Assembly: GCA_964016885.1 (NCBI GenBank)
Contig: OZ024740.1
Span: forward strand, 281,356,001-281,420,000
Length of the DNA: 64,000 nt
From: Eledone cirrhosa
Lineage: Eukaryota
Reading direction: 5' to 3'
Part shown: positions 3,177 through 64,000 of the stretch, piece by piece
Layout of the letters: each line of letters begins with the position of its first letter
Numbering within the stretch: position 1 is the first letter of the stretch
Program-made: the position numbers and the translations under genes
Notes under the pieces: model-generated
Seen by the model: the letters and a program-made list of their open reading frames with translations, nothing else
Told to the model about the DNA's origin: nothing
The model's database searches: none

Positions 3177-3584
3177 CGAGGGTAATCCCAAAAGTAAGGT
3201 CTCCAATGTGATGGGGACGCAGAGAAACTGTTCGTACGGCTGTTGGAAACACTGTTGTGATTGATGCTTCCTTCACTCCCAAACAAGCATGCGCGCGCTT
3301 AGATGGGATGCTCAATCTTGGCTTGGCAGCTGTTGAGAATGGAGCTCCCGATGTACGCTACCGCCAAGTGCGAAGTTCGCGTAGTTATTATATAGAGGGC
3401 AATCCCAAAAGTAAGGTCTCCTTCCGAGGAAAACATCCGTAAAGATCGGCGGATCACTCTGGATGCTCTCTTCATTTTGGTTCCTGAGGTTTCCCGAAGC
3501 ACCATCCACAGAATTTTTATGGAAAAGTTGCAATATCGGAAGTTGCAATATCGGAAGGAGACCTTACTTTTGGGATTGCCCTCG
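3177..3584. mobile_element. Mariner-type MITE
   Basis: TIRs cgagggtaatcccaaaagtaaggtctcc / ggagaccttacttttgggattgccctcg, TA-like flanks, and a third internal TIR copy at about 3395. Confidence 0.8.

Positions 3585-17294: not shown

Positions 17295-17325
<31 letters not shown>
14680..17325 (+). mobile_element. L1/Tx1-type non-LTR retrotransposon (subfamily B), 5'-truncated, with internal deletions including about 2 kb of RT
   Basis: ORF1 remnant, APE (MTSLRIGSINARGL...VLVGEWN), a jump at about 16262 to the C-terminal CCHC (CPRC..ETVLHALDQC), AATAAA and an (ATT)n tail. Confidence 0.93.

Positions 17326-22103: not shown

Positions 22104-22134
<31 letters not shown>

Positions 22135-26651: not shown

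Positions 26652-26735
<84 letters not shown>

Positions 26736-36283: not shown

Positions 36284-36287
<4 letters not shown>
34993..36287 (+). mobile_element. Retrozyme-like / non-autonomous PLE array: one inverted partial unit plus 3.3 tandem 311-bp units, within (TA)n
   Basis: atcgctatttcagagc recurs at 35264, 35575, 35886 and 36197, and 34993-35261 is inverted. Each full unit has a hammerhead. Confidence 0.9.
35402..35440 (+). ncRNA. Type I hammerhead in the array unit (also 35713-35751 and 36024-36062; inverted copy 35188-35226)
   Basis: agtc-CTGACGA-t ttct aacg agaa t-GAAA-cgcg-TA-gatt, closed by a 16-bp helix attctcgataaaagca/tgcttttatcgagaat. Confidence 0.85.
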
Positions 36288-36338
<51 letters not shown>

Positions 36339-42989: not shown

Positions 42990-43262
42990 ATGCAAATAAA
43001 GTATTCTGGCAGACCATCCGCCGACTTTGTAATAAGAAGTCCCCCTTCACGCCTACTATCAGGAATGCCCCCATATGCATCTGCGTGAGGTGGAGAGAAT
43101 ACTTTGCTGATCTCCTAAACTGGGTCACACACTATTTTAATGTAATGTGGTACAACTAACAGCAATGACTAACCACTCGGAGAGTGTGATCACTGGAGCA
43201 ATAAATAAACTCGAATATGCCACGGCCTCTGAGTAGGGTGAAATTCGTCTCGAGAAGTTTTT
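42990..43262 (+). pseudogene. RTE-type LINE ORF fragment
   Basis: NKVFWQTIRRL...RWREYFADLLN...AINKL. Confidence 0.65.
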
Positions 43263-43473
43263 TTAATGGGCTTTATCCACGAGAGACTCTTGGAGATGTC
43301 CCCACTATTGGGGAATTTTCCTTTGTTTCATTTTTTTTTTTGTTACATTCTTTGTTTTTATTTTATTTATTTGTTTTTACACGCAGAAACGCCCAGTTGT
43401 ACCGTCCTGTGCTGTCCTTAATGTTATGTTTTGTGTCAACCCTTATAGATAATAAAGAAAACATTATTATTAT
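43263..43473 (+). mobile_element. Tx1-type 3'UTR-only stub with (ATT)n tail
   Basis: gggctttatccacg...ccccactattggggaatttt...acacgcagaaa...gtaccgtcctg...aataaagaaa matches the Tx1 3'UTR. Confidence 0.8.
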
Positions 43474-44823
43474 TGTTACTCTTGGAGTGTCAGTCATTTA
43501 GGTTTGTTAAAATGAATATCAAGCCGCTACCTGCAGCCTCAGATATTCAGGACATATCGGCGGGTTCATGCTGTTCCCAGCAAGCATGCCTTTTGAAGTG
43601 TTCCAAAAAAGGGGGCTGGACAAATGTTCTTTAACCATCCCTGAAAACTCCTATGACAATCGGGACGACATTGATCTCAGGACAGTCCCAAATCCTTTTT
43701 AACTCCCACTTTAAATCCTGGTATCGGCTAATTTTCTCCTTCTACTTCTCCTTTTCTACAATCAGACACGATATTTTTTCCTTGTCCTATTGTGTTCTAA
43801 TTTGTCCGTCTGTATCCTGAAATCTCGTTTTCTATCACCCACTCTGCATTATGCTCATACCACTTCTCAGAATGTGGTAAATTGTTTAGTTTGCGTAATG
43901 TCATATCATATCTCCAGCCTTTATAGTGGGTCTGGGCTAGGTGTTTACACTCGGATACGATGTGATCCACAGTCTCCACAGATCCTACACAGTGAGCTGG
44001 CCTCCTCCTTGTCAATATTGTGTTTCACTCACTTCGTTCTGAGGGCTAGCTCTTGTGCAACCATTAGCATTTCTTCTGTAGCTTTTTTAAGGTCTCCTCT
44101 TTTTAAACAGTTCCATGTCTGTGGATCTCTGAATTCCGTTTTCTTAAAGGTGCTATGAAGGGATTTTTCAGGAAGGTTGCTCTTTCTCTTTGTTGTTATT
44201 TCCTCCTTTGGGCATCTCCTGGGCTATTCTCTTCTCCTTCAGTACAACTTTGAGCATTGGCTCCCTACTCTGAGACACATATTTGTGCAGGTTATTTTTC
44301 TCCATCTGAACACAGTCCTCTATGTTGATAAGACCTCTTCTACCTTCAGATCGCTTTAAGTAGAGTTTGTCAACATCACTTGTGGAACATGTTGTAGATA
44401 GTCAATAGCTTCCTAGTCTTTCTATCCATTTCTTTTTGTTCAGCAGCATTCCATTTCAGAATTCCCGTACTGTACCTAATAATAGACACAATTCGGAAAT
44501 TTACTGCACTTATGACATTCCTACTATTTAGATATGATTTTTGTATGTTCCTTACTGTCCTTATGTATTCAGATCTGATCAATTCCTTCATTTTATTGTT
44601 CTTGGTGTCATCTGCTTCCAGAACACCCAAATATTTGCATCCCTATTCAGTGTCGATTTCCCTTATCATCTCACCTGTTGGTACCTGGATGCCGTTGCTG
44701 CTGCTCATTTTACCCCTCTTCATCACTAGGACTCCACATTTATTAACAGCAAATTCCATAGATATATCATTGTTAACAAGTACATCCAACTCCTTCTCAC
44801 TCTTCCCAAAGTGTTTTAGATCG
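43474..44823 (-). mobile_element. 5'-truncated, degraded Dong-type copy (D3)
   Basis: GVLEAD...[18 protein letters not shown] and ETVDHIVSECKHLA; (TTA)n on both sides. Confidence 0.9.
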
Positions 44824-44840
44824 TTATTATTATTATTATT

Positions 44841-47800
44841 TACCAGACAATCAAGGTAAGTGATCCTTTCTCACTTGCCCTCTTCCTCACGTGTAAACGT
44901 GTAAACGTGCGTGGCTTGCGCTCGGTTTGGAAGCAGAGACACTTGCTTAACGACCTCAGGTCACTAAACATAGATGTGGTGGCCATCAGTGAGACGAGAA
45001 TCTCCGAAACGCAAGCCTTCGCACCGATTTCGACGGTTACGAGGTGTACACATCTCCGAACCGTCCGGGAACGGGGAGCGGAGTGGCTGTGTTGTTTCGG
45101 AAAGGCTTGGGTCTCGCCATACGGACCATCTTCCCCGACCCAGAAGGTAAGTTGGTGGTGCTGGACGTAAGCGGCACCGAAGGCAACGCTTTCAGGCTAG
45201 CAGCCGTCTATGCCCCGACAGGGACAGGACGGCCAGATTTCTTTAGACGTCTAGAGACCGTTCTTGGAACGTCCCGCTCTTTAGTGTTAGTGGGCGACTG
45301 GAACGGTATCTTGGATGCATGCTGGGATTGTGTAGGGCTAGTGGATAGGGCAGAAGGGCGCAAGAGCCTCTCCAACCTGCTCAGACGTTTTGAACTGTCT
45401 GACAGGTATCGACTGGATCACCCGAATATGCCAATGTGGACATGGACAAACCGCATCGGGTCATCCAGATCGTATCTCGATAGGGTTTTCTGCAGAGAAC
45501 TAGATAAGGCTAGTATAAGTTGTCCACAAATTAAAATAGTCGACTACACAGACCACAAATGTGTGATCTGTGAGATCGACATAGACAGACTACAAGGGCC
45601 CGGTTACTGGAAGCTGAACGCGTCTTTCCCGGCGCGCAAAGCCTACAGAGACCGGATTAGTGTATTAGTTAAGCGGGCGTTGACGGGAGCGGTCGCCAAC
45701 AACAGGTGGTGGTTCACCCTGAAAAGGGCAATTAATGTAGAGTCGATTAGGTTTAGCAAAGGACTAGTGATAGAGGAAAATAGAGTAGAGGGAGAGCTAG
45801 TCAGAAAGCTAGAAGAGGTGTTTAGGACAGGCATCGCAACCGAGGTGCTTGTGGCGAGATTGGCACTCGACCAATTCTTCAACGCAAAACACGAAGGCTG
45901 TGGTGTCAGAGCTAGAGCGCGTGCTCTGAAACACGAGGGGACAAAAGCCGTCCAATGGGCCCGGGAGGCAGAGGCGCGACGTGGCAACAAAGCCGCAATT
46001 CGGTCTTTGTCTGACCAAAACGGGTGCGTATTGCTCGAACCCGAGCAGTTGTGTGGAGTTTTTCAGCAGCACTTTGTGAACTGTTCGGGAACAGCGGCGG
46101 CCCGGATCGGGGCATGGACTTCAGTGCATACTTCGACGGACTGCCTCGGCTCTCGATGACCGCAGCACAGTGTTGCAAAAAGCCAATAACAGCCGGTGAA
46201 ATACGGGAGGCGATGGCTAACTGCACGAGGGGTAAATCGTCTGGTTTGGATGGTCTGCTCTACGAGTTTTAAGCATTTATGCCAGACATGTTGTTGACCT
46301 CTTGGCAGACGTCTATTGCAAATGGCAGCAGAACGGGAGCATTCCCAGTTTTGTGAGCCGGTAGCGGTGGCGCTGCTGAGAAAAGACCCGAACAAAGGGG
46401 ATGTTATCGATAACTTCAGGCCCATAACCCTGCTAAACGCAGAGTTAAAGATTTTGGCCAAGGTGTTAGCAACGAGGTTGGCGCTTGTCGTCGAGGGTCT
46501 GGTGGGAGAGGCGCATACATGCGCCATTCCGGACAGATCCATACACGACAACCTCCACCTCTTGCGATACATCGTAGAGAGGGAGGTTAAGGAACCTGGT
46601 ACGAATCGGGCCCTGATCAACTTGGATCAATCCAAAGCATTCGATAGGGTCGACCATCGGTACCTGGCGGTGGTCCTCGAGGCAGCCGGTTTCGGGTCCG
46701 TTTTCAGCGACATCTGATCGGTTGTCAGAGTGAACGGTCACCTGTCGCAGCCGTTCAGCATCATGATCTCGGTCTACCAGGGTTGTCCCCTCTCGTCCCT
46801 CTTGTACGTATTGGCTCTCGAGCCGTTACTGCACAAACTGGGGGCGATGAGGGGCGTCCCACGCGAACTAGGATGCGGGAAATCCGAGTCGGCTTGCGCC
46901 AACGATGTCACCCTGGTAGTGTTGAGCACCAGACACGTCCAGATGCTGGGCACCGCTCTCAAGGAATACGAAGCGATGCCAGGAGCAAAGATAAACCAGG
47001 AAAAGTCGGTGGGCTTGCAGCTCGGCACCTGGAGAGGCAAGTCCATGCCGTCCGACAGTGTCGTGGGGGCGTTGGACGGACGGACCGGTTAAATTGCTCG
47101 GGGTCTGGTTCGGACCGGACCTCCAGATGGAGAAAAGCTGGAGCGAGGTGACGAGCAGGGTGGCCACCCTTACCCAGAAATGGGCCGAGAGGAAGCTATC
47201 CCTGAAAGGTCGGGCGGAGGTGGCGAATGCGTACATCGCATCCGTCATCTGCTACCGCCTGACCATCGTCCCTTGCCACGTACCAACTCTCACCAAAATG
47301 GAATGTCTCCTCTTCCGCTTTTTGTAGAAGGGACGCGTTCCCATGGTCAGACGATCCATCTGCTGTCATCACTCGTTGCGTGGAGGACTGGGCATGTCAT
47401 GGCTGATGATGCGCAAACATGCGCCGAGGCTGCGACATCTCTGGTGCTTCCTTGACGGTGGACAGGCACTTTTTCCCACAGCTCGTCTCATTGACGGAGC
47501 TGCAATCCTGGGTTAAGAAAAGACCGAGGGATAGCGCTTGGAAACTGGAATGTCACCAGGCGCTCACTGCCCTCTGCCAGCTAGGCATCAGTATCGGTGG
47601 AACATCCAACTCGGCGTTCTATAGAGGACTAGTGGAGGGGAAGAACGACGACGTTCTCGGAGAGATCCTGGGCGTCGAAGAAGATCAACTGTTTGCTGTC
47701 TTCCGGAGAGCTTTCAGCCCAGGGCCTATGGATAACTTCCAAAAATCCCTGGCCTGGCAGTGCTACCGGGGAGCGTTGCCGGTTCGAGATAAGCTCTACA

Positions 47801-48565
47801 GGCACGGAAGTGCCGTCAGCCGAGCCTGTCCGAGATGCGCGCATAGCGACGAAACCATCGTGCACGCTCAGTGCCCGAGCATTGCTAACTTGTGGAGCTA
47901 TGTCGAACAGTTGCTGTCGCGTGTAGGACTGATCCGGTTATCGACTGAGTCCATATTGCAGATGGTCTCTCTGTCTTCCTTCGAGGAAATGGCAAGCGGC
48001 TTTCATCTGCCTGGTGGCCATGGCAAAAGAGATTGTGTGGTGGACAAGGTTGAAAGGGTTAAAGACAGACACTTTCCTCTTCGGCGAATCCCTAATTAAC
48101 TTTTTCAAGTTTCACTTGAAGAGGAAAATCAGGGTGGAGAGGCAAGTGCTGCCTTCTAGCAAGTTTGTTGAAAGGTGGGTGAATGTAGCGAGAATGGTCC
48201 GAGTGAACAGGACCGCTCTGAATATACGCCTGTAGTTTGAGAAATGGAAAAATTGAGAGAGGGCACTTGCCCTGGTGGTCAGGGTGGCCGTGGTCTTCTG
48301 TGCGGTTTTCGCCACGAGTAATCCTCAGAGGTTTCCCCCTATTGGGAAATTGTTTCATTGTTTCACTTTTCATTTTTATTGTTTATATATATATATATGT
48401 TTCTATGTCTTTTTTTTTCTTTCTTTATATAAATAATAAAAATCTTTACACGCACAAAACCCATATCGTACCGTCCTGTACCGTCCTGTGCCGTCTGTAA
48501 AGTTTTTCTTGAGGTCAGCCCTTGTGGCCAATAAAGAAATCATTATTATTATTATTATTATTATT
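44841..48565 (+). mobile_element. Tx1-type element, divergent subfamily C, 5'-truncated and frameshifted
   Basis: APE, RT and CCHC fragments homologous to 56576-59995; AATAAA and (ATT)n at 48542-48565. Confidence 0.92.
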
Positions 48566-48778
48566 GAATGCCATGGTTGACGGAGGCTCGGCTCTGTAAG
48601 GTATAGTAATTTTTAACCGTTAAAACAATTGTAAATTGTTTAAAACTTGAACCAAATTGTTGATAAAGACACCCTCCTCCTCGTGAGAGGGGTCTTTCTG
48701 TCCGTTATTTGGCCCTTCGGGGTTAAATAACCAGTTATTGGGGTTTTGTACCCAAAATTTCATTTTAAACAAAAAAAC

Positions 48779-50698
48779 ATGGCTACCAAAAAGAAATTTC
48801 ATACGTCACTCCCACTCATTCCGTCTTCTTCTTCCTCAATCATCACTACAGCAGAGAGAAGATTGTCTCTCTCCCTCCCTTCTTTAAATGTGTCTCTCTC
48901 CCTCCCTTCTCTTTCGCAAGCGACGAAAGAAAAGAAAAGTCTCGTGCAAAGCGTGCAAGGTTTCTCCACGACGACGACGACAGCGACGAAACAGGTGTGC
49001 GGGAAATACGAAAACCCAGTTCATTCGTCTGACGTCAGGAATAATAGCAGTAGCAGCCGTAATAACAACAGCAACAGTGACAATGAAAACAACAGTAGCA
49101 GCCGCAACAGCATCACCAGCAGCATAAACAACAACAGCATTAGCAGCAGCAACACCAACAACAACCACAGCAACAGCGGCGGAGGCAGTAGTCGTAGTAC
49201 CTGCAGCAACAAAAGTACCAGCAGCTCTGACGACAACAACAACAGCAGAGAAAAACCAATCTCATTTGCAGGTATTGCGAAAAACTTGGAAACAATCCTC
49301 ATAACAAATGAGGAATTAGAGGAAGCGAAGAAGATGGTGACAAAGAACGGACACCGAGCAATCTGCAAGGCAGCGAAACATTTTTTCGAAACCCAAGAGC
49401 ACTGTACGGTCACGTACCGTACAGTAAGTACAAAATCCCGTAGGGTGGAAAGAGCCACAGAGGCCCAAATACAAAAAGCCTTGGGGTCTGTGTGGCAGAG
49501 GAAAACGCACATCACCCAAGGCAAAAAATACGCCACCGTAGACGTACTTTTTGCCACACCCCAGGAGGCAAAGGCCCAATCAGTAGTGACCCTAAGGAGC
49601 GAGGAAATGGTGTTGGTGCCCTCCTACTGCGGGCAAAAAATTGTGAGGGTCAAACTGACCCACGTCCCCCCCGGAATGACCCCTTCTTGGCTGGCCGCGT
49701 CTGTCCTCGTCGGAATCGAGGACAAAACAACTGTACTGCAAGTACAGAAAAAAGTAAGAGAAGATTGGGTCGGCTCCTCCATTGAGATGCTAATCCAAAC
49801 CAACCAGGAGTGCATCGAAGCTATCCCGGATGTGATAGACTTCGATAACGGCACTCAACTGCCCATAAGTGTTGAGGGCAAACGCCCGAAATGCTTTCGC
49901 TGTGGATCGAAGACTCACCTCAGGGCCTTCTGCAACGAGAAGACCCTGAGAAAGGAGAAAACCCCCCTCCTTCCGAATCCGGCTCCACGGCTACCAGCAA
50001 CAGGACAAGCGGCAACCAGGAACGATAGGTCCGTGGCACCCATACCCACTCCACGGAAATCAAAGACAGCAGCAGCAGTGGAAATATTAACAACAACAAC
50101 AGCAATACCAAATGCAGCTGCAACAGAGACTCCAGTGCAAACATCACCAACAACAACAAGTGAAAGAGTGGAGCTGGTACCCCTCCCCGACCTTACAGAA
50201 TCAGACATGGATGTGTGAGGTGGGAGAGGGATGGCAAAAGGTCGCAAGAAGGCACAAACGCAGAAGCAGCGCATCGTCGCCTTTGAAAAGGGAGGAAAGA
50301 AATGAGAAAAGGGTAAAGTCTACTGCAAAGAGACCCACAGCAGCAACACCACCAACACCATCACCACCCACACCAGCACCACCATCACCACCGGCGACAA
50401 CCCCACCGCCAACAACACCTTCAACACCACCACCACAAGCACCAACATCGCAAACACAACAACAAAACACACACACCCAGCAACAACGACAAGAAAATAG
50501 CAGAACCACACCCCACCCCCAGAAAAACAAATGCACGGCAATAAACACACACAACAAGAAACTAATGACTTACATAATTGAACACACAGACATTTCAAAA
50601 CAGGACTACATAATACCAGCACCAATCAAAACGCCAACTAACATAAGACTGCTAAAAATAGCACAGAAACAATACACAAACATTAAAACGAAATTCCC
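48779..50698 (+). pseudogene. ORF1 (gag-like, CCHC knuckle) of copy A1, frameshifted at about 50212
   Basis: CFRCGSKTHLRAFC; one extra base relative to A2. Confidence 0.85.
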
Positions 50699-53600
50699 GA
50701 TGTGTACGCATCTCCCAGCCGTCCTGGATCGGGTGGAGGAGTTGCTGTGCTTTTTCGGAGAGGTTTGGATCTCGCCATACGGGCCATCTTCCTGGACCCA
50801 GAGGGTAAGCTGGTGGTGCTGGACGTGACCAGTGGAGACGGGCAAGCTTTCAGGCTAGTGGCCGTCTATGCCCCGACAGGAGCAGGGCGGCCTGATTTCT
50901 TCCGGCGTCTGGAGACCTTTCTTGGAACGTCCCGCTCTTTAGTGTTAGTGGGCGACTGGAACGGGATCTTAGATGCACGCTGGGACTGTGTGGGATTAGC
51001 GGATAGGGGTGGAGGGTGCAAGAGCCTCACCAACCTGCTCAGGCGTTTTGAACTGTCTGACAGGTACCGATTGGATTTCCCGAATGTGCCAATGTGGACT
51101 TGGACAAACCGCATAGGGTCATCCAGATCATATCTAGATAGAGTATTTTGTAGGGAAATAGATAGGTCTAGCATAGGCTGTCCACAATTCAAGATAGTCA
51201 GCTACACGGACCACAAATTCGTGATCTGTGTGCTTGACTTAGATAGGCTTCATAGACGAGGACCCGGCTACTGGAAGCTAAACGCGTCCTTACCAGCGCG
51301 CAAGGCCTACAGAGACCGGATTAGCGAACTAGTTAAGCGGGCGTTGACGCGGGCCATCGTCAACAACAAGTGGTGGTTTGCTCTGAAAAGAGCGATTAGA
51401 ATAGAATCGATTAGGTTTAGTAAGGCTTTAGCAATAGAGAAAAATAGAGCAGAGGGAGAACTAGTTAGAAAATTAGACGAGGCGCTTAGCAAAGGCATTG
51501 CGACCGACGTGCTTGCGGCGAAATTGGCCCTTGACCAATTCTTCAATGCAAAGCACGAAGGCTGCGTTGTCAGAGCTAGGGTGCGTGCTCTCAGACACGA
51601 GGGGACGAAAGCCGTTCAATGGGCCCGAGTGGCGGAGGCGCGTCGTGGCAACAAAGCCACGATCCAGTCTTTGGTGGACCACGACGGGCGCATGCTACTC
51701 GATCCCGGGCAAATGTGTGAAGCTTTTCAGCGACACTTCGCTCAGCTGTTCGGGGGCAGCGGGGGGCCGGGTAGAGGGATGGACTTTAGTGTCTACCTCG
51801 ACGGACTGCCGCGGCTCTCGGCCACTGAGGCGAAGTGTTGCGAAAAGCCGATAACAGCCGCTGAAGTACGGGAGGCAATGACTGGCTGCACAAGGGGTAA
51901 ATCGCCTGGTTTGGATGGTCTGCCCTATGAACTTTACGTACAGATGCCAGACTTGTTCGGAGGCCTCTTGGCGGACGTCTACTGCAACTGGCAACAGAAC
52001 GGGAGAATTCCCAGTTCTGTGAGCCGAGGAGCGGTGGCACTGCTGAGAAAGGATCCGAACAAGGGGGATAACATAGACAATTTCCGGCCCATAACTCTGC
52101 TAAACACAGAGTTTAAGATTTTGGCCAAGGTGCTAGCAAAGAGGTTGGCGCTTGTCGTTGGTGGTCTGGTGGGAGAGGCGCAGACATGCGCCATTCCCGA
52201 CAGATCCATCCACGACAACCTCCACCTCATGCGATACATCGTAGAGAGGGTAGCTAGGGAACCTGGCACGGGTGGGTCCTTGATCAATTTAGATCAGTCG
52301 AAAGCTTTCGATAGGGTCGACCATCGTTACCTAGCGGCAGTCCTGAGGGCGGCTGGCTTTGGGCCCGTCTTCAGAGGCTGGATCGCTGCCATGCACAGCG
52401 ACATCTGCTCTGTGGTGAGAGTGAACGGTCACCTGTCGGAACCGTTCAACATCATGCGCTCGGTCCGCCAAGGATGTCCCCTCTCGTCCCTCTTGTACGT
52501 ATTGACTCTCGAGCCATTACTGCACAAACTGGAGACGTTGAGGGGAGTCCCGCGCGAACTAGGATGCGGAAGATCCGTGTCAGCATATGCGGACGATGTC
52601 ACCGTAGTGGTGTCGAACGCCAAACACATCGAGGCGATCGGCACTACACTAAGAGAATACGAAGCGGTGACAGGAGCAATGATCAACCAGGAAAAGTCAG
52701 TGGGCCTGCAGCTCGGCACCTGGAGAGGCAGGTCCATGCCGTCCAACAGCGTCGTCGGGCGCTGGACGGACGGACCGGTTAAATTGCTAGGGGTCTGGTT
52801 CGGTCCGGACCTCCAGACGGACAAAAACTGGGACGAGGTGACGAGCAGGGTGGCTTCTCTCACCCAGAAATGGGCGGAGAGGAAGCTATCCCTGAAAGGT
52901 CGAGCGGAGGTGGCTAACGCGTACATCGCGTCTGTCATCTGCTACCGCCTAACCGTCGTACCTTGTCCTAAGCCTCGCCTGACTGCGCTGGAGCGTTTGC
53001 TCTTTCGCTTTTTGTGGAAGGGACGTGCTCCGATGGTCAGGCGGTCCATCTGTTGTCAACACCCGCTACGTGGAGGGCTGGGCATGCCGTGGCTGATGAT
53101 GCGCAGGCACGCGCTCAGGCTACGACATCTCCACCTCTTCCTCGACGGTGATCAGGTGTGGTCGCCGTTTGCTAGACGCGTTTTTCCCCAGCTCGTTTCC
53201 TTGACGGAGCTGCAGTCCTGGGTCAAGCGAAGACCGAGAGGGAGCGCCTGGAGACTGGAATGTCTTCAGGCGCTCACAGCCCTCGACCAATCGGGCAATG
53301 TGATCGGTGGAAACTCCACCTCGGCGTTCTATAGAGGATTAGTGGAGGGGAAGAGCGACGACGTACTTGGGGAAACTCTAGGCGTCGACGAAAATCAACT
53401 AGCCAATCTCTTCGGAAGAACTTTCGGGCCAGGGCCTATGGACAACTTCCAGAAATCTCTGGCCTGGCAGTGCTACCGAGGAGCCTTGCCAGTTCGGGAT
53501 AAACTCTACAGGCATGGAGGTGCCGTCAGTCGGGCATGTCCGAGATGCGCGCAGGGCGACGAAACCGTCCTGCACGCACTCGTCCAGTGTCTGAAAATTG

Positions 53601-53953
53601 CTGACTTGTGGGTTTATGTCGAACACCTGCTGTCGCGTTTAGGACGGATCCAGCTATCATCTGAGTCTATCGTGAGGATTGCCCCGCCCTCCTCCTTTAG
53701 CCGGGAAGGGCAGGCAGTTTTTATCTGTCTGGTGGCCATGGCGAAAGAGATAGTATGGTGGACACGTTTGAAAGGGCTGAAGACGAGCACTTACCTCTTC
53801 GGTGATGCTCTGATTGACTTTTTCAAATTTCATTTGAAAAGGAAAATCAGAGTAGAGAAGGAAGTGCTCTCTTCCCAGCATTTTGTTGAAAGATGGGTGA
53901 GAGAAGCAAGAATGGCCCGAGTGAATGGGCCGACTCTGAGTATATATCTGTAA
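50699..53953 (+). pseudogene. ORF2 (APE-RT-CCHC) of copy A1 lacking the N-terminal part of the endonuclease
   Basis: Open 1083-aa frame, but the first about 55 codons including the INARG and SETR motifs are missing. Confidence 0.85.
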
Positions 53954-54213
53954 ACTAAAGGTGGAAAACTGGGAGAGGGCACTTGCCTTGGTGGTCAGGG
54001 TCATTGTGGCTTTTTACTGGGCTTTCTCCACAAATGTCCCTCCGAAGTCTCCCCCCTATTGGGGAATTTTTCATTGTTATTTTCATTGTTATTTTTGTTA
54101 CATCCTCTGTTTTTGTTTTTTTACACGCAGAAATGCCCATTTGTACCGTCCTGCATTGTCCTGCACTGTCCTTAATGTCTACTTTATGTAAACCCTTGTG
54201 GTTAATAAAGAAA

Positions 54214-54254
<41 letters not shown>

Positions 54255-54467
54255 GAATGCCATGGTTGACGGAGGCTCGGCTCTGTAAGGTATAGTAATT
54301 TTTAACCGTTAAAACAATTGTAAATTGTTTAAAACTTGAACCAAATTGTTGATAAAGACACCCTCCTCCTCGTGAGAGGGGTCTTTCTGTCCGTTATTTG
54401 GCCCTTCGGGGTTAAATAACCAGTTATTGGGGTTTTGTAGCCAAAATTTCATTTTAAACAAAAAAAC

Positions 54468-56540
54468 ATGGCTACCAAAAAGAAATTTCATACGTCACTC
54501 CCACTCATTCCGTCTTCTTCTTCCTCAATCATCACTACAGCAGAGAGAAGATTGTCTCTCTCCCTCCCTTCTTTAAATGTGTCTCTCTCCCTCCCTTCTC
54601 TTTCGCAAGTGACGAAAGAAAAGAAAAGTCTCGTGCAAAGCGTGCAAGGTTTCTCCACGACGACGACGACAGCGACGAAACAGGTGTGCGGGAAATACGA
54701 AAACCCAGTTCATTCGTCTGACGTCAGGAATAATAGCAGTAGCAGCCGTAATAACAACTGCAACAGTGACAATGAAAACAACAGTAGCAGCCGCAACAGC
54801 ATCACCAGCAGCATAAACAACAACAGCATTAGCAGCAACAGCGGCGGAGGCAGTAGTCGTAGTACCTGCAGCAACAACAAAAGTACCAGCAGCTCTGACG
54901 ACAACAACAACAGCAGAGAAAAACCAATCTCATTTGCAGGTATTGCGAAAAACTTGGAAACAATCCTCATAACAAATGAGGAATTAGAGGAAGCGAAGAA
55001 GATGGTGACAAAGAACGGACACCGAGCAATCTGCAAGGCAGCGGAAACATTTTTCAAAACCCAAGAGCACTGTACGGTCACGTACCGTACAGTAAGTACA
55101 AAATCCCGTAGGGTGGAAAGAGCCACAGAGGCCCAAATACAAAAAGCCTTGGGGTCTGTGTGGCAGCGGAAAACGCACATCACCCGAGGCAAAAAATATG
55201 CCACCGTAGACGTACTTTTTGCCACACCCCAGGAGGCAAAGGCCCAATCAGTAGTGACCCTAAGGAGCGAGGAAATGGTGTTGGTGCCCTCCTACTGCGG
55301 GCAAAAAATTGTGAGGGTCAAACTGACCCACGTCCCCCCCGGAATGACCCCTTCTTGGCTGGCCGCGTCTGTCCTAATCGGAATCGAGGACAAAACAACT
55401 GTACTGCAAGTACAGAAAAAAGTAAGAGAAGATTGGGTCGGCTCCTCCATTGAGATGCTAATCCAAACCAACCAGGAGTGCATCGAAGCTATCCCGGATG
55501 TGATAGACTTCGATAACGGCACTCAACTGCCCATAAGTGTTGAGGGCAAACGCCCGAAATGCTTTCGCTGTGGATCGAAGACTCACCTCAGGGCCTTCTG
55601 CAACGAGAAGACCCTGAGAAAGGAGAAAACCCCCCTCCTTCCGAATCCGGCTCCACGGCTACCAGCAACAGGACAAGCGGCAACCAGGAACGATAGGTCC
55701 GTGGCACCCATACCCACGCCACGGAAATCAAAAACAGCAGCAGCAGTGGAAATATTAACAACAACAACAGCAATACCAAATGCAGCTGCAACAGAGACTC
55801 CAGTGCAAACATCACCAACAACAACAAGTGAAAGAGTGGAGCTGGTACCCCTCCCCGACCTCACAGAATCAGACATGGAGTGTGAGGTGGGAGAGGGATG
55901 GCAAAAGGTCGCAAGAAGGCACAAACGCAGAAGCAGCGCATCGTCGCCTTTGAAAAGGGAGGAAAGAAATGAGAAAAGGGTAAAGTCTACTGCAAAGAGA
56001 CCCACAGCAGCAACAACACCAACACCATCACCACCCACACTAGCACCACCATCACCACCGGCGACAACCCCACCGCCAACAACACCTTCAACACCACCAC
56101 CACAAGCACCAACATCGCAAACACAACAACAAAACACACACACCCAGCAACAACGACAAGAAAATAGCAGAACCACACCCCACCCCCAGAAAAACAAATG
56201 CACGGCAATAAATACACACAACAAGAAACTAATGACTTACATAATTGAACACACAGACATTTCACAACAGGACTACATAATACCAGCACCAATCAAAACG
56301 CCAACTAACATAAGACTGCTAAAAATAGCACAGAAACAATACACAAACATTAAAACGAAATTCCCCAACGCAGTTGGTGATTTCAGGGACCTAGGAGGAA
56401 CCATCAATCGAAGAGTATACTCAGACATTCTCTTAGAAGAGCCGACGACCAGCCGAAGGGACGATTCAACGGTCCCTTCACCAGACGATCAAGTGAAAAG
56501 GGATGTAAAAACCATCCCTCCTCTACCAAAAGTACGGTAA
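54468..56540 (+). CDS. ORF1 nucleic-acid-binding protein (low-complexity N-terminus, probable RRM-like core, CCHC knuckle, Pro/Thr-rich tail), 690 aa
   Basis: Open frame, CFRCGSKTHLRAFC, and position upstream of APE-RT. Confidence 0.9.
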   Translation: MATKKKFHTSLPLIPSSSSSIITTAERRLSLSLPSLNVSLSLPSLSQVTKEKKSLVQSVQGFSTTTTTATKQVCGKYENPVHSSDVRNNSSSSRNNNCNSDNENNSSSRNSITSSINNNSISSNSGGGSSRSTCSNNKSTSSSDDNNNSREKPISFAGIAKNLETILITNEELEEAKKMVTKNGHRAICKAAETFFKTQEHCTVTYRTVSTKSRRVERATEAQIQKALGSVWQRKTHITRGKKYATVDVLFATPQEAKAQSVVTLRSEEMVLVPSYCGQKIVRVKLTHVPPGMTPSWLAASVLIGIEDKTTVLQVQKKVREDWVGSSIEMLIQTNQECIEAIPDVIDFDNGTQLPISVEGKRPKCFRCGSKTHLRAFCNEKTLRKEKTPLLPNPAPRLPATGQAATRNDRSVAPIPTPRKSKTAAAVEILTTTTAIPNAAATETPVQTSPTTTSERVELVPLPDLTESDMECEVGEGWQKVARRHKRRSSASSPLKREERNEKRVKSTAKRPTAATTPTPSPPTLAPPSPPATTPPPTTPSTPPPQAPTSQTQQQNTHTQQQRQENSRTTPHPQKNKCTAINTHNKKLMTYIIEHTDISQQDYIIPAPIKTPTNIRLLKIAQKQYTNIKTKFPNAVGDFRDLGGTINRRVYSDILLEEPTTSRRDDSTVPSPDDQVKRDVKTIPPLPKVR

Positions 56541-56575
56541 GTGGTCTTTCCCATCTTTTCCACTCTATTTTAAAC

Positions 56576-59500
56576 ATGACCTCACTCAGAATAGGCAGCA
56601 TAAATGCGCGTGGCTTGGGGTCGTCATGGAAGCAGGGTCACCTGCTCAACGACCTCAGGTCACTAAACATAGATGTAGTGGCCATCAGCGAGACCAGAAT
56701 CTCCGAAGCACGGGCCTTCGTACCGATCTTCGGCGGCTACGATGTGTACGCATCTCCCAGCCGTCCTGGATCGGGTGGAGGAGTTGCTGTGCTTTTTCGG
56801 AGAGGTTTGGATCTCGCCATACGGGCCATCTTCCTGGACCCAGAGGGTAAGCTGGTGGTGCTGGACGTGACCAGCGGAGACGGGCAAGCTTTCAGGCTAG
56901 TGGCCGTCTATGCCCCGACAGGAGCAGGGCGGTCTGATTTCTTCCGGCGTCTGGAGACCTTTCTTGGAACGTCCCGCTCTTTAGTGTTAGTGGGCGACTG
57001 GAACGGGATCTTAGATGCACGCTGGGACTGTGTGGGATTAGCGGATAGGGGTGGAGGGTGCAAGAGCCTCACCAACCTGCTCAGGCGTTTTGAACTGTCT
57101 GACAGGTACCGATTGGATTTCCCGAATGTGCCAATGTGGACTTGGACAAACCGCATAGGGTCATCCAGATCATATCTAGATAGAGTATTTTGTAGGGAAA
57201 TAGATAGGTCTAGCATAGGCTGTCCACAATTCAAGATAGTCAGCTACACGGACCACAAATTCGTGACCTGTGTGCTTGACTTAGATAGGCTTCATAGACG
57301 AGGACCCGGCTACTGGAAGCTAAACGCCTCCTTACCAGCGCGCAAGGCCTACAGAGACCGGATTAGCGAACTAGTTAAGCGGGCGTTGACGGGGGCCATC
57401 GTCAACAACAAGTGGTGGTTTGCTCTGAAAAGAGCGATTAGAATAGAATCGATTAGGTTTAGTAAGGCTTTAGCAATAGAGAAAAATAGAGCAGAGGGAG
57501 AACTAGTTAGAAAATTAGACGAGGCGCTTAGCAAAGGCATTGCGACCGACGTGCTTGCGGCGAAATTGGCCCTTGACCAATTCTTCAATGCAAAGCACGA
57601 AGGCTGCGTTGTCAGAGCTAGGGTGCGTGCTCTCAGACACGAGGGGACGAAAGCCGTTCAATGGGCCCGAGTGGCGGAGGCGCGTCGTGGCAACAATGCC
57701 ACGATCCGGTCTTTGGTGGACCACGACGGGCGCATGCTACTCGATCCCGGGCAAATGTGTGAAGCTTTTCAGCGACACTTCGCTCAGCTGTTCGGGGGCA
57801 GCGGGGGGCCGGGTAGAGGGATGGACTTTAGTGTCTACCTCGACGGACTGCCGCGGCTCTCGGCCACTGAGGCGAGGTGTTGCGAAAAGCCGATAACAGC
57901 CGCTGAAGTACGGGAGGCAATGACTGGCTGCACAAGGGGTAAATCGCCTGGTTTGGATGGTCTGCCCTATGAACTTTACGTACAGATGCCAGACTTGTTC
58001 GGAGGCCTCTTGGCGGACGTCTACTGCAACTGGCAACAGAACGGGAGAATTCCCAGTTCTGTGAGCCGAGGAGCGGTGGCACTGCTGAGAAAGGATCCGA
58101 ACAAGGGGGATAACATAGACAATTTCCGGCCCATAACTCTGCTAAACACAGAGTTTAGGATTTTGGCCGGGGTGCTAGCGGAGAGGTTGGCGCTTGTCGT
58201 TGGTGGTCTGGTGGGAGAGGCGCAGACATGCGCCATTCCCGACAGATCCATCCACGACAACCTCCACCTCATGCGATACATCGTAGAGGGGGTAGCTAGG
58301 GAACCTGGCACGGGTGGGTCCTTGATCAATTTAGATCAGTCGAAAGCTTTCGATAGGGTCGACCATCGTTACCTAGCGGCAGTCCTGAGGGCGGCTGGCT
58401 TTGGGCCCGTCTTCAGAGGCTGGATCGCTGCCATGCACAGCGACATCTGCTCTGTGGTGAGAGTGAACGGTCACCTGTCGGAACCGTTCAACATCATGCG
58501 CTCGGTCCGCCAAGGATGTCCCCTCTCGTCCCTCTTGTACGTATTGACTCTCGAGCCATTACTGCACAAACTGGAGACGTTGAGGGGAGTCCCGCGCGAA
58601 CTAGGATGCGGAAGATCCGTGTCAGCATATGCGGACGATGTCACCGTAGTGGTGTCGAACGCCAAACACATCGAGGCGATCGGCACTACACTAAGAGAAT
58701 ACGAAGCGGTGACAGGAGCAATGATCAACCAGGAAAAGTCAGTGGGCCTGCAGCTCGGCACCTGGAGAGGCAGGTCCATGCCGTCCAACAGCGTCGTCGG
58801 ACGCTGGACGGACGGACCGGTTAAATTGCTAGGGGTCTGGTTCGGTCCGGACCTCCAGACGGACAAAAACTGGGACGAGGTGACGAGCAGGGTGGCTTCT
58901 CTCACCCAGAAATGGGCCGAGAGGAAGCTATCCCTGAAAGGTCGAGCGGAGGTGGCTAACGCGTACATCGCGTCCGTCATCTGCTACCGCCTGACCGTCG
59001 TACCTTGTCCTAAGCCTCGCCTGACTGCGCTGGAGCGTTTGCTCTTTCGCTTTTTGTGGAAGGGACGCGCTCCGATGGTCAGGCGGTCCATCTGTTGTCA
59101 ACACCCGCTACGTGGAGGGCTGGGCATGCCGTGGCTGATGATGCGCAGGCACGCGCTCAGGCTACGACATCTCCACCTCTTCCTCGACGGTGATCAGGTG
59201 TGGTCGCCGTTTGCTAGACGCGTTTTTCCCCAGCTCGTTTCCTTGACGGAGCTGCAGTCCTGGGTCAAGCGAAGACCGAGAGGGAGCGCCTGGAGACTGG
59301 AATGTCTTCAGGCGCTCACAGCCCTCGACCAATCGGGCAATGTGATCGGTGGAAACTCCACCTCGGCGTTCTATAGAGGATTAGTGGAGGGGAAGAGCGA
59401 CGACGTACTTGGGGAAACTCTAGGCGTCGACGAAAATCAACTAGCCAATCTCTTCGGAAGAACTTTCGGGCCAGGGCCTATGGACAACTTCCAGAAATCT

Positions 59501-59995
59501 CTGGCCTGGCAGTGCTACCGAGGAGCCTTGCCAGTTCGGGATAAACTCTACAGGCATGGAGGTGCCGTCAGTCGGGCATGTCCGAGATGCGCGCAGGGCG
59601 ACGAAACCGTCCTGCACGCACTCGTCCAGTGTCCGAAAATTGCTGACTTGTGGGTTTATGTCGAACACCTGCTGTCGCGTTTAGGACGGATCCAGCTATC
59701 ATCTGAGGCCATCGTGAGGATTGCCCCGCCCTCCTCCTTTAGCCGGGAAGGGCAGGCAGTTTTTATCTGTCTGGTGGCCATGGCGAAAGAGATAGTATGG
59801 TGGACACGTTTGAAAGGGCTGAAGACGAGCACTTACCTCTTCGGTGATGCTCTGATTGACTTTTTCAAATTTCATTTGAAAAGGAAAATCAGAGTAGAGA
59901 GGGAAGTGCTCTCTTCCCAGCATTTTGTTGAAAGATGGGTGAGAGAAGCAAGAATGGCCCGAGTGAATGGGCCGACTCTGAGTATATATCTGTAA
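56576..59995 (+). CDS. ORF2 apurinic-type endonuclease / reverse transcriptase / C-terminal zinc knuckle, 1139 aa
   Basis: SINARGL, ISETR, LVGDWN, YLDR, YTDH (APE); GYWKLN; KSPGLDGL, NFRPITLLN, DQSKAFDRV, VRQGCPLS, YADD (RT); CPRC..ETVLHALVQC. Confidence 0.96.
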   Translation: MTSLRIGSINARGLGSSWKQGHLLNDLRSLNIDVVAISETRISEARAFVPIFGGYDVYASPSRPGSGGGVAVLFRRGLDLAIRAIFLDPEGKLVVLDVTSGDGQAFRLVAVYAPTGAGRSDFFRRLETFLGTSRSLVLVGDWNGILDARWDCVGLADRGGGCKSLTNLLRRFELSDRYRLDFPNVPMWTWTNRIGSSRSYLDRVFCREIDRSSIGCPQFKIVSYTDHKFVTCVLDLDRLHRRGPGYWKLNASLPARKAYRDRISELVKRALTGAIVNNKWWFALKRAIRIESIRFSKALAIEKNRAEGELVRKLDEALSKGIATDVLAAKLALDQFFNAKHEGCVVRARVRALRHEGTKAVQWARVAEARRGNNATIRSLVDHDGRMLLDPGQMCEAFQRHFAQLFGGSGGPGRGMDFSVYLDGLPRLSATEARCCEKPITAAEVREAMTGCTRGKSPGLDGLPYELYVQMPDLFGGLLADVYCNWQQNGRIPSSVSRGAVALLRKDPNKGDNIDNFRPITLLNTEFRILAGVLAERLALVVGGLVGEAQTCAIPDRSIHDNLHLMRYIVEGVAREPGTGGSLINLDQSKAFDRVDHRYLAAVLRAAGFGPVFRGWIAAMHSDICSVVRVNGHLSEPFNIMRSVRQGCPLSSLLYVLTLEPLLHKLETLRGVPRELGCGRSVSAYADDVTVVVSNAKHIEAIGTTLREYEAVTGAMINQEKSVGLQLGTWRGRSMPSNSVVGRWTDGPVKLLGVWFGPDLQTDKNWDEVTSRVASLTQKWAERKLSLKGRAEVANAYIASVICYRLTVVPCPKPRLTALERLLFRFLWKGRAPMVRRSICCQHPLRGGLGMPWLMMRRHALRLRHLHLFLDGDQVWSPFARRVFPQLVSLTELQSWVKRRPRGSAWRLECLQALTALDQSGNVIGGNSTSAFYRGLVEGKSDDVLGETLGVDENQLANLFGRTFGPGPMDNFQKSLAWQCYRGALPVRDKLYRHGGAVSRACPRCAQGDETVLHALVQCPKIADLWVYVEHLLSRLGRIQLSSEAIVRIAPPSSFSREGQAVFICLVAMAKEIVWWTRLKGLKTSTYLFGDALIDFFKFHLKRKIRVEREVLSSQHFVERWVREARMARVNGPTLSIYL

Positions 59996-60260
59996 ACTAA
60001 AGGTGGAAAACTGGGAGAGGGCACTTGCCTTGGTGGTCAGGGTCATTGTGGCTTTTCACTGGGCTTTCTCCACAAATGTCCCTCCGAAGTCTCCCCCCTA
60101 TTGGGGAATTTTTCATTGTTATTTTTTATTGTTATTTTTGTTACATCCTCTGTTTTTTTTTTTTTTTTTACACGCAGAAATGCCCATTTGTACCGTCCTC
60201 CATTGTTCTGCACTGTCCTTAATGTCTACTTTATGTAAACCCTTGTGGTTAATAAAGAAA

Positions 60261-60310
<50 letters not shown>

Positions 60311-63300
60311 GGCGACCTACGTAGTAAATCGTACTATCGTGAGCTCCGCAAAGGTTTGTTATTTTCAGTGGTTTAAAATTGCCATTTATGGAAAAATGTT
60401 ATTGTTAACTGTACATAAGTGCACATACATTGTTATCTGAAAAGGACACCCAAAAAGATTGGGGCATTGAGCCCAAAATTTAAACTTTTATAATTATCAA
60501 ACAAATATTTTTCTTTGAAAAATCATGGACGACTCCAGGTCACACCTTCCTCACAAACTAACACCTCACACCGACACCACCATTGTAAATATTACTACGT
60601 TTGCCAACACTAAAAATATAAGCAGTAGCAATATTTTAAATTTGTCTCAAGCAGACATTCATTTCCCGCCATTACCAATGACTGCAGGTGTTAAAGCCGC
60701 CACCTCCACCACCACCACAGCGACAACAGAAACAAAAGAAAAAATAAATTAACTCGTGATATCGAAATGAATTCAACCAAATTGAACTCTTCCACACCGA
60801 ACACAACTGACGCCACCGCCACCACAATTGAAACTAAAATTAACAATAAAAAAATAACGATAACAACAACAGCAACAATGAAATTAATAAAACCACCCTG
60901 AGTTGCAAAACAGTGCGAAGTATTTCAGGTAACTCAGGAGGAATTAGAAGAAGCCAAAAAATGGTAAAAAATGGTAAACATAAAATCGCGCCGAGTGGAA
61001 CGGGCATCCGAGTCCCAAATCCAAAAAGCTTTGGGACATGTGTGGGCAAAAAAAACCCACATCAGACGTGGGCAGAAATATGGAACCGTGGACGTGTTCT
61101 TTGAAACACCACAGGAGGCTAGAGAGCACTCCATGGCCCCATTAAGAAGTGACGACTTCACACTCGTCCCAACCATCGAAACACCGGCCATCGAAACTCC
61201 CTGGCTAATAGCTGCCCTCCTCGCCGGCATCGAAGCCAACATCAAGATAATCGAAATAGCGAAAGAAAAGCAGGAGAACTGGTCCGGATCTGGGATGGAG
61301 CTCCTGATCCAAGCGGACCAAAAAAGCATTGAGGAGTTCCCAGAGGTAATAGACCTCACTGATGGCAGCCACCTCACCGTGATCGTCGAGGGCAGAAGGC
61401 GTAGGTGTGTCGTTTGTGGTGAAGGAACCCACCTAAGGCCTTCTGCCCTCAGGCTAAAAGCTTTAGGCCACCTCTCTTACCCACCCCAGTGACTCAACCA
61501 TCAACACAACCAGCAGTGACTCAACCATCAACACAACCATGGCACCAACAACTGTAGCAGCAACAACAGAAGCAACTGTAACAGCAACAACCCCAGCAAC
61601 AGTAGCAAAACCAAAACCACCACCACCCAACGCTTCAGAACTAGCACCAGCGCCTACACCATCCACCACACAACAACCAAAACTAACTTCCCGGCGTATC
61701 ACAACTGGAGACAGATTGTGACGACGAGAAGTGGGAAACGGTATCAGGAAAAAAGAAAAAAAAGAAACCAAAAAAGAAAAAATTCTCTTCCTTCCCCCTC
61801 CAAAAACAAAATACAGAGGGAAACAAATAAATTAACAAACAAAAAAGTTAGGACAGATATGCCACCATCTACACCAGCATCACCAACCCCATCACCACAA
61901 ACACCAACACCATCACCATCATTAACCCCAACATCATCATTACCAACACCACAAAAGTCACCAAAAAGCGTAACAGAAACAAACCCACAACAAACGCAAA
62001 CAAAACAAAACAACCAAAACGATACATACTACACAGCATTAAATTTGAACAACAACCAATTATTACACTACATGCAACACAACACCAGGATCACAGAAAA
62101 AACTACACAACAACCCAAAAGTTCACACCACCTCCACACATACAAATCACTCGAATCACACAGAAAACGTACACGACACTAAAACAAAAATTCCCCAAAG
62201 ACATCGGAGACTTCCGACAAGCACTCTCCAGGAGGATTTATAAGGACATCCTTCCGGAGGAGGCCACAAGCAGTGAAAAGGATGGAGAAACCATCCTTCC
62301 TCTACGAGAAGTAAGGTAAGTGGTCTTTCCCATATTTTCCACTCCATTTCAACATGACCTCACTCAGAATAGGCAGCATAAATGCGAGTGGCTTGGGGTC
62401 GTCATGGAAGCAGGGCCACCTGCTCAACGACCTCAGGTCACTAAACATAGATGTAGTGGCCATCAGCGAGACCAGAATCTCCGAAGCAAGGGCCTTCGCA
62501 CCGATCTTCGACAGGAGCAGGCGGCCTGATTTCTTCCGGCGTCTGGAGACCTTTCTTGGAACGTCCCGCTCTCTAGTGTTAGTGGGCGACTGGAACGGGA
62601 TCTTAGATGCACGCTGGGACTGTATGGGATTAGCGGATAGGAGAGGAGGGTGCAAGTGTCTCACCAACCTGCTCACGCGTTTTGAACTGTCTGACAGGTA
62701 CCGATTGGATTTCCCGAATGTGCCAATGTGGACTTGGACAAATCGCATTGGGTCATCCAGATCATATCTAGATAGAGTATTTTGTAGGGAAAGAAATAGG
62801 TCTAGCATAGGCTGTCCACAATTCAAGATAGTCAGCTACACGGACCACAAATTCGTGATCTGTGTGCTTGACTTAGATAGGCTTCATAGACGAGGACCTG
62901 GCTACTGGAATCTAAACGCATCCTTACCAGCGCGCAAGGCCTACAGAGACCGGATTAGCGAACTAGTTAAGCGGGCATTGACGGGGGCCATCGTCAACAA
63001 CAAGTGGTGGTTTGCTCTGAAAAGAGCGATTAGAATAGAGTCCATTAGATTTAGCAAGGCTTTAGCAATAGAGAAAAATAGAGCAGAGGGAGAACTAGTT
63101 AAAAAATTAGACGAGGCGCTTAGCAAAGGCATCGCGACCGACGTACTTGCGGCGAAATTGGCCCTTGACCAATTCTTCAATGCAAAGCACGAAGGCTGCG
63201 TTGTCAGAGCTAGGGTGCGTGTCTCAGACACGAGGGTACGAAAGCCGTTCAATGAGTCTGTGTGGCGGAGGCGCGTCGTGGCAACAAAGCCACGATCCGG

Positions 63301-64000
63301 TCTTTGGTGGACCACGACGGGCGCATGCTACTCGATCCCGGGCAAATGTGTGAAGCTTTCTAGCGACACTTCGCCCAGCTGTTCGGGGGCAGCGGCGGGC
63401 CGAATCGAGGGATGGACTTTAGTGTCTACCTCGACGGACTGCCGCGGCTCTCGGCCACTGAGGCGGAGTGTTGCGAAAAGCCGATAACAGCCACTGAAGT
63501 ACGGGAGGCAATGAGTGACTGCACAAGGGGTAAATCGCCTGGTTTGAATAGTCTGCCCTATGAACTTTACGTACTGATGCCAGACTTGTTCGGAGGCCTC
63601 TTGGTGGACGTCTACTGCAACTGGCAACAGAACGGGAGAATTCCCAGCTCTGTGAGCCGAGGAGCTGTGGCGCTGCTGAGAAAGGATCCGAACAAGGGGG
63701 ATAACATAGATAATTTCAGGCCCATAACTCTGCTAAACACAGAGTTCAAGATTTTGGTGCTAGCAAAGAGGTTGGCGCTTGTCGTTGGTGGTCTGGTGGG
63801 AGAGGCGCAGACGTGCGCATTCCCGACAGCTCGATCCACGAAACCTGCACCTCATGCGATACATCATAGAGAGGGTAGCTAGAGAACCTGGAACGGGTGG
63901 GTCCTTGATCAATTTAGATCAGTCGAAAGCTTTCGATAGGGTCGACCATCGTTACCTAGCGGCAGTCCTGAGGGCGGCTGGCTTTGGGCCCGTTTTCAGA
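60311..64000 (+). mobile_element. Tx1-type element subfamily B with intact 5' end but disrupted ORFs, running off the window
   Basis: Starts right after (ATT)n; ORF1 pieces 60525-62319; ORF2 from 62354 with a deletion at about 62510 and frameshifts. Confidence 0.93.

Follow-up and report, generated by a model that had tools for sequence, protein, structure and literature searches.

Opposite-Strand Nesting of Tx1-Like and Dong-Like LINEs at (TTA)n Runs in an Eledone cirrhosa Contig

Introduction

Can two clades of long interspersed elements (LINEs) that cut DNA with different endonucleases share one simple repeat as a target, each in its own orientation? This question was raised by a 64,000-nt stretch of Eledone cirrhosa DNA (assembly GCA_964016885.1, contig OZ024740.1, positions 281,356,001 to 281,420,000 of the forward strand), referred to below as the window. 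Here, Tx1-like LINEs, which encode an apurinic/apyrimidinic endonuclease (APE), and Dong-like LINEs, which encode a restriction-like endonuclease (RLE), lie end to end with only (TTA)n runs between them. How APE-type LINEs gain or change specificity, through the endonuclease or through RNA-DNA pairing, is an open question, and the mechanism of microsatellite targeting is described in a review as not well understood (PMC3812793). We lean toward the reading that the two families are nested in (TTA)n on opposite strands, that each primes on the strand pairing with its own RNA tail, and that the Tx1-like family prefers TTA runs.

Two Nests Joined by (TTA)n Runs

As shown in Table 1, positions 43260-64000 are filled by six LINE copies, and neighbors are separated only by (TTA)n runs of 12-48 nt. 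This nest measures 20,741 bp and is open at the window edge. An initial annotation had described six elements joined in this way in an array of over 20 kb, with every Tx1-like copy on the plus strand, the Dong-like copy on the minus strand, and the four later Tx1-like copies starting after ...TTATT. All of this was confirmed: the five runs lie at the positions it gave, domain and identity searches agree on the strands, and the starts of C, A1, A2, and B are each immediately preceded by ...TTATT.

A second nest of the same build, absent from that annotation, occupies 14684-26735 and contains Tx1-like E on the plus strand and Dong-like D2 and D1 on the minus strand. The TTA runs sum to 146 nt in this nest and 140 nt in the larger one. 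The host repeat that is cut at the left flank of E does not resume beyond the nest, indicating that a deletion was involved at the E 5' junction, and no target-site duplication was found around 14684-26735. On the masked window, no further copy of either family was detected outside the two nests (best tblastn E 0.14).

The window holds nine TTA-family runs of at least 12 nt, eight of which are element junctions; runs of at least 14 nt make up 0.45% of its sequence. The junction pattern exceeds chance, and with chance excluded the question is whether the junctions are independent events.

Table 1: Coordinates of LINE copies, junction runs, and related features in the window.
Feature	Position	Strand	Description
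Tx1-like E	14684..17294	+	Has the B-type ORF1 and has lost large internal segments; non-TTA 5' flank formed by a cut host repeat
TTA junction E/D2	17295..17325		31 nt
Dong-like D2, full length	17326..22103	-	RT, CCHC, PD-D endonuclease motif; long low-complexity leader; head 21874-22103
TTA junction D2/D1	22104..22134		31 nt; holds no Tx1-like copy
Dong-like D1, full length	22135..26651	-	93.5% to D2
D1 5' head	26422..26651	-	Colinear with Tx1-like heads 54255-54484 and 60311-60540
(TTA)28, right end of second nest	26652..26735		84 nt, longest run; holds no Tx1-like copy
Tx1-like 3' stub	43260..43462	+	~200 nt, 73% to A2; 5' flank non-TTA
(ATT)4 junction stub/D3, tail to tail	43463..43474		12 nt, perfect period-3
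Dong-like D3	43475..44823	-	5'-truncated inside RT, decayed, 77% to D2
(TTA)n junction D3/C, head to head	44824..44840		17 nt, perfect period-3
Tx1-like C	44841..48541	+	5'-truncated just before ORF1 stop; 80% to A2
(ATT)8 junction C/A1	48542..48565		24 nt, perfect period-3
Tx1-like A1	48566..54215	+	Full-length head; early ORF1 stop; 375-bp deletion spanning ORF1 end/ORF2 start
(ATT)13 junction A1/A2	54216..54254		39 nt, perfect period-3
Tx1-like A2, full length	54255..60262	+	Head, ORF1 54468-56540, ORF2 56576-59995, 3' UTR ending AATAAAGAAATC
A>G cluster, A2-derived, editing-like	58158..58181	+	Five changes in 24 nt
(ATT)16 junction A2/B	60263..60310		48 nt, perfect period-3
Tx1-like B	60311..64000	+	Full-length head; ORF2 95% to A2; head and ORF1 unlike A; continues past window edge
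ORF, open reading frame; RT, reverse transcriptase; UTR, untranslated region.

Coding Content of the Two Families

The A2 ORF2 encodes 1139 aa with an APE-RT-zinc finger layout (Pfam PF03372, PF00078, and PF13966), and its closest solved structure in a PDB search was L1 ORF2p (E 4e-50), with R2 at E 1e-21. ORF1 contains one CX2CX4HX4C knuckle and an RNA-binding-like core; its language-model features correspond, at 0.90-0.93, to those of CCHC and ZCCHC3-type RNA-binding clusters, and a Pfam scan of ORF1 returned neither a Transposase_22 match nor a direct RRM match. The ORF1 of Tx1 elements is of the RRM plus CCHC type rather than Transposase_22, and in non-mammalian animals such an ORF1 is consistent with Tx1 (PMC5203782); no link between ZCCHC3 and Tx1 ORF1 was found in the published text available to us. 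By the predicted domains of both ORF2 and ORF1, the family fits the Tx1 clade of the L1 group. No named Tx1 sequence was present among the homolog matches, and hence we use the label Tx1-like.

A1 is ~99% identical to A2, from which it differs by 44 substitutions and its private deletion. B and E combine an A-type ORF2 (91-95%) with a different head and ORF1, and C (80%) and the stub (73%) represent further subfamilies. When A was aligned with B and E, the barely alignable ORF1 turned to 94-95% identity ~45 nt before the ORF1 stop (A2 56492; B 62272; E 15539), an apparent exchange of head plus ORF1.

The Dong-like copies have a single ORF with a CCHC motif and a PD-D endonuclease motif, and the D2 RT is closest to R2. 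The family profile matched R2 at E 7e-46, and its endonuclease stretch reached the R2 restriction-like endonuclease at E 0.0019. A single ORF, an R2-like RT, a C-terminal CCHC with a predicted RLE, and TAA repeats at both ends are together the features of Dong/R4 elements. No informative name appeared among the best 120 of 2208 homolog matches.

Element Ends and a Proposed Mechanism

All five Tx1-like 3' ends in the two nests read AATAAAGAAA-x-C and then (ATT)n, which sits directly after AATAAAGAAATC with no poly(A). Four of the six Tx1-like 5' ends follow the repeat (3/3 full-length and 1/3 truncated), all with ...ATT in one phase. The repeat is present at both ends of all three Dong-like copies, which have (AAT)n tails and 5' ends that abut the repeat. 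A target preference has been defined as more than 20% of family flanks lying in one sequence type (PMC4494074); in the window, 4/6 of the Tx1-like 5' flanks and 5/5 of the 3' ends are TTA-family, although these values are not independent and come from two nests.

These ends could be generated as follows. Tx1-like RNA would run a few AUU units past the polyadenylation signal AAUAAA, and the L1-like APE would nick the (AAT)n strand at a T/A step, after which the AUU units would anneal to the nicked strand and prime reverse transcription. The Dong-like RLE would act likewise on the (TTA)n strand. A run would be divided in two by each insertion, allowing the nest to go on growing. Such pairing predicts invariant opposite orientations for the two families, ends that lack poly(A), and two runs in place of the original one. 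The endonuclease hairpin loop aligned without gaps to the L1 loop and is 2 residues shorter than that of the LTX chimera, a length compatible with a relaxed L1-like nick.

The initial annotation had proposed that the Tx1-like family is (TTA)n-specific. Both clades do occupy one repeat on opposite strands, and the three full-length Tx1-like 5' ends all abut it; strict specificity, however, is called into question by two non-TTA 5' ends out of six and by the arrays of a sister lineage, described below, which lack TTA. The preference is probably strong yet graded, with RNA-DNA pairing rather than a strict endonuclease as its main determinant, and for this reason truncated or founding copies can lack upstream TTA. 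Annealing of the RNA to the repeat target improves priming in SART1 (PMC7265360), and truncated copies without an upstream target occur in Utopia (PMC4640811).

Decay and Order of Insertion

ORF2 disablements (frameshifts plus projected stops) numbered 13 in 3394 nt of C (9 frameshifts and 4 stops) and 6 in 1659 nt of B (4 frameshifts and 2 stops), whereas none was present in 3256 nt of A1 or 1420 nt of E. This corresponds to 3.8 per kb in C, 3.6 in B, and 0 in A1; the A2 ORF2 is open. Young copies thus lie between decayed ones, an arrangement that disfavors arrival of the nest in a single event.

Among the 44 A1/A2 substitutions, 16 were unpolarized, 3 were mixed, 10 were derived in A1 (no A>G), and 15 were derived in A2 (7 A>G). 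By comparison, only 5/104 private changes in the other copies were A>G (Fisher 6.6e-5). Clustering of five A>G changes in 24 nt was reached in 3 of 200,000 simulations, and some of these changes alter residues conserved in relatives. We take this pattern to be ADAR-like, and the cluster suggests that A2 passed through RNA after its split from A1. Unequal decay of the copies, together with the RNA-editing-like footprint in A2, makes growth of the nest by successive insertions likely. Between D1 and D2, an A>G excess (35 versus 11 T>C) was not significant after composition was taken into account (p 0.067). On the sense strand, private changes showed G>A over C>T in B (14 versus 7) and E (17 versus 7).

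A Sister Lineage and Alternative Explanations

A scan of a genome collection identified 41 loci, 38 of which (L001-L037 and L040) come from contigs of one metagenome-assembled genome (MAG), CAXXMW01. Contigs of up to 94 kb with long LINE arrays, together with other eukaryote-like contigs (L038, L039, and L041), are filed in bacterial MAGs. The CAXXMW01 contigs look like animal DNA because they are composed of LINE arrays, and the eukaryote-like contigs in bacterial MAGs are likely host contamination. The relative in the CAXXMW01 arrays is 41% identical in ORF2 and homologous in ORF1 (E 9e-11), and several head/ORF1 subfamilies are found there on one ORF2. A quick IQ-TREE phylogeny containing unnamed relatives, one plant L1, and a Dong-like outgroup placed this relative as sister to the Tx1-like family of the window (Shimodaira-Hasegawa-like approximate likelihood ratio test (SH-aLRT) 100, no bootstrap).

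Several observations weigh against a (TTA)n preference reached by separate insertions. The stub and E, the leftmost copies of their nests, account for the two of six Tx1-like 5' ends without TTA. With D3 left out of account, each Tx1-like 5' end flanked by TTA immediately follows the 3' end of another Tx1-like copy, and the TTA runs that are not beside a Tx1-like 3' end (22104 and 26652, the longest) hold no Tx1-like copy. The evidence is drawn from two nests. In the sister lineage, 51/51 distinct 3' ends on 16 contigs were followed by a same-strand copy, full-length or truncated, and neither poly(A) nor a TTA run was present at any of them. In addition, the A>G tests were performed after the cluster had been noticed, and no local hairpin was found under it; its sites were mostly unpaired in local folds, and editing would therefore need an antisense partner.

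In the main alternative, which is quite possible, the Tx1-like family has a lineage habit of stacking after its own 3' end, (ATT)n is only a tail, founders land at unrelated sites, and only the Dong-like family truly targets the repeat by exploiting these tails. Judging by the 51 sister-lineage ends, stacking immediately after AATAAA characterizes the lineage and does not depend on TTA. The same explanation predicts founders that are non-TTA and leftmost, as both are in the window. In its favor, too, each of C, A1, A2, and B follows a Tx1-like 3' end when D3 is removed, and the Dong-only runs contain no Tx1-like copy. However, 17-48 nt of pure repeat precede the new 5' ends, which would require a recognition indifferent to run length, and C follows a stub that is only 73% alike. 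Moreover, the sister-lineage loci were fetched around ORF2 matches on contigs binned together, a sample biased toward pure arrays, and a solitary decayed relative does exist (L041).

DNA-level duplication, by unequal crossing-over between runs or copies, or a duplication in the assembly is an unlikely source of part of the array, notably of A1/A2 and D1/D2. A1 and A2 are adjacent, ~99% identical, and share the same 5' start, and the ORF2 differences between them are distributed as 6/7/10 across the three codon positions. In the sister-lineage locus L034, a truncated unit is present in two identical copies, indicating that DNA duplication also acts in those arrays. In contrast, the 7 derived A>G changes of A2 sit atop a symmetric background (8 other changes versus 10 in A1), the 375-bp deletion is private to A1, and duplication cannot join C, B, and the stub (73-80%) or the inverted D3. 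Template jumping is established for R2. The whole nest is nevertheless very unlikely to have arrived at once, whether through template jumping from RNA to RNA or as a single read-through transcript: the head-to-tail order with only the tail of the upstream copy between copies fits template jumping, but neighbors differ strongly in decay and span four subfamilies, and D3 is inverted. DNA duplication and single-event template jumping explain at most a part of the nests.

Heads, Leaders, and Splice-Like Signals

The first 230 nt of D1 and D2 are colinear with the A and B heads up to an A-run plus ATG at +214, +215, +223, and +225. Anchored scores were 83-88 for Dong-like versus Tx1-like head pairs and 76 for A versus B. 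Among 1530 genomic windows, 0-4 reached the cross-clade scores, as did 0-12 of 1000 block-preserving shuffles and, jointly, 0-1 of 2000. However, head identity is only ~52% of columns in A/T-rich sequence, and the D2 local-alignment scores are weak. When the window heads were compared with the sister-lineage heads, the similarity was mostly within shuffles (1/28 pairs at 1/200). On these alignments, we regard true homology of the Dong-like and Tx1-like heads as evenly balanced with its absence. The Dong-like leader beyond the head was also considered as a possible match to ORF1 DNA, a candidate rejected because only low-complexity matches were obtained.

Since the two clades always lie in opposite orientations, simple nesting cannot yield a head chimera; a shared head would need a template switch or a common donor. 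If such sharing is real, 5' modules pass between clades that are believed to initiate their RNAs in different ways. A broader proposal, which we consider doubtful, is that the lineage programs its own target by the sequence after the polyadenylation signal (the next head in the sister lineage, (ATT)n here), combined with a head transfer through which the Dong-like elements would carry a Tx1-type promoter head instead of a ribozyme. A shift into (TTA)n would then have placed the Tx1-like lineage on the strand opposite the Dong target.

Silkworm Dong self-cleaves at its 5' end by means of a hepatitis delta virus (HDV)-like ribozyme (PMC3774820). At the D1 and D2 5' ends, Rfam detected no such ribozyme, and our own descriptor, which is crude and may miss a divergent ribozyme, gave no match starting there and, within the leaders, no match that has the usual loop. 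The silkworm-type ribozyme was thus not found, and the elements are named Dong-like for this reason. No ribozyme or other RNA family was detected at the heads and leaders; a loosened descriptor gave 33 matches in 296 nt of the A head and was uninformative. Upstream of the Dong-like ORF (25630-25670 and 20860-20900, minus strand), two one-sided changes have left a 7-bp helix intact in D1 and D2; this helix is not an HDV-type fold.

The leader of D1 and D2 is 1.0-1.3 kb long and of low complexity. On the minus strand, D1 (26607 and 25727) and D2 (22058 and 20942) have a donor-like CCC|GTAAGT at ~+45 and an acceptor-like T-tract plus CAG ~120-140 nt before the ORF. These signals flank the low-complexity leader, which resembles a retained 5' intron. 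Sister-lineage heads contain GTAAG at +51 to +63 in 6/11 and at +101 to +130 in 4/11.

A splice-donor-like GGTAAGT also coincides with the ORF1 stop of each of the four window copies in which that position is present (A2 56533-56590, B 62311-62370, E 15578-15640, and C 44852-44865). It is present in the main array-forming relatives (e.g., L007 12420-12440), where the stop codon is in another position, and absent from L031, L038, and L041. The 3' UTR contains a T-rich tract plus CAG at 60140-60180. With these two signals, ORF2 could possibly be spliced out, giving an ORF1-only message.

Comparison with Known Systems

Each ingredient of the preferred reading, opposite-strand nesting of both families in (TTA)n, has precedent: microsatellite Tx1 elements, TAA-targeting Dong, an APE and an RLE clade meeting on one target, and two families facing opposite ways in a single repeat. 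Microsatellite-targeting Tx1 elements include Kibi in (TC)n, Koshi in (TTC)n, and crocodilian families in (TTCC)n/(TTTC)n (PMC4494074). The initial annotation had assigned both Kibi and Koshi to trinucleotides, which is correct for Koshi, whereas the Kibi target is a dinucleotide. Like the window family, these are two-ORF APE LINEs of the L1 group in a simple repeat. Compared by target, however, Kibi and Koshi use pyrimidine-rich repeats, whereas all junction runs in the window are TTA-family, A/T-only, and shared with an RLE element.

TAA-targeting elements include Dong of B. mori, DongAg, and DongBg, and among their hosts is a snail (PMC3812793). They share with the Dong-like copies a single ORF, an RLE, and TAA repeats at both ends; silkworm Dong differs in its 5' ribozyme, of which no counterpart was found in D1 and D2, whose 5' parts consist of the Tx1-like head and low-complexity leader. 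Keno (Tx1, APE) and Utopia (RLE) both insert into U2 snRNA genes (PMC4640811), showing that APE and RLE clades can converge on one target; they use one gene site, whereas the window pair would use a microsatellite on opposite strands that would be renewed at each insertion. TRAS1 and SART1 insert into (TTAGG)n in opposite directions (PMC7265360) and are likewise two families in one repeat. Both are telomeric APE elements, whereas the window pair spans the APE and RLE clades at an interstitial site. The CAXXMW01 relative shares head-to-tail stacking after AATAAA without poly(A), GTAAGT at the ORF1 stop, and head/ORF1 exchange, yet no microsatellite was present at its 51 junctions and no opposite-strand partner was seen.

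A more distant relative, L038 (28%), lies behind a short A tract in a U1 small nuclear RNA (snRNA) gene, which it joins at nucleotide 37; a 157-nt duplication accompanies the insertion (3036-3199 and 10010-10166). This single copy can be likened to target-specific Tx1 elements in other small RNA genes; for the U1 snRNA target, Dada-U1 is the only element listed in the available text of PMC4640811. In the sister-lineage arrays, no tRNA target was found in 30 loci, and Rfam detected no snRNA in 6 array loci. A telomere-targeting Tx1 is cited in PMC10088271; telomeric repeats were detected in neither the window nor the 41 loci.

Our literature search, in which Kojima and Fujiwara 2004, Repbase Reports, and the figure labels and supplements of PMC4494074 were not included, found no report of a (TAA)n/(ATT)n-targeting Tx1 or of such mixed nests in the text available. 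If both families do insert into (TTA)n, with fresh repeat left by each insertion for the next, this repeat would add to the targets known for one of the two. With the open-frame A2, an endonuclease loop of L1 length, and a sister lineage that stacks with different junctions, the window family is suited to a direct test of target choice. The microsatellite load of the window and a short 64% match in an Octopus sinensis protein point to an octopus as the probable host. In O. vulgaris, Dong-R4 and L1-Tx1 were recently active, with 1129 and 421 insertions, respectively (PMC13282606 Table 1), and one repeat used by two clades could help explain transposable element hotspots in octopus-type genomes.

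Other Features of the Window

Upstream of the stub, the alignment with the Tx1-like family dropped off at ~43260, and the DNA beyond had no convincing match among 236 fetched proteins (best E 0.009). Just upstream, 42990-43255 is decayed coding-like DNA with tool matches of only E 0.07-0.08; it resembles an RTE-type LINE relic. A 268-aa RT-like ORF without a Pfam match lies at 12213-13019 and is presumably Penelope-like, and 41500-42200 is presumably a mariner-like relic. A 311-bp tandem repeat occupies 35263-36292, and inverted and dispersed copies of it exist.

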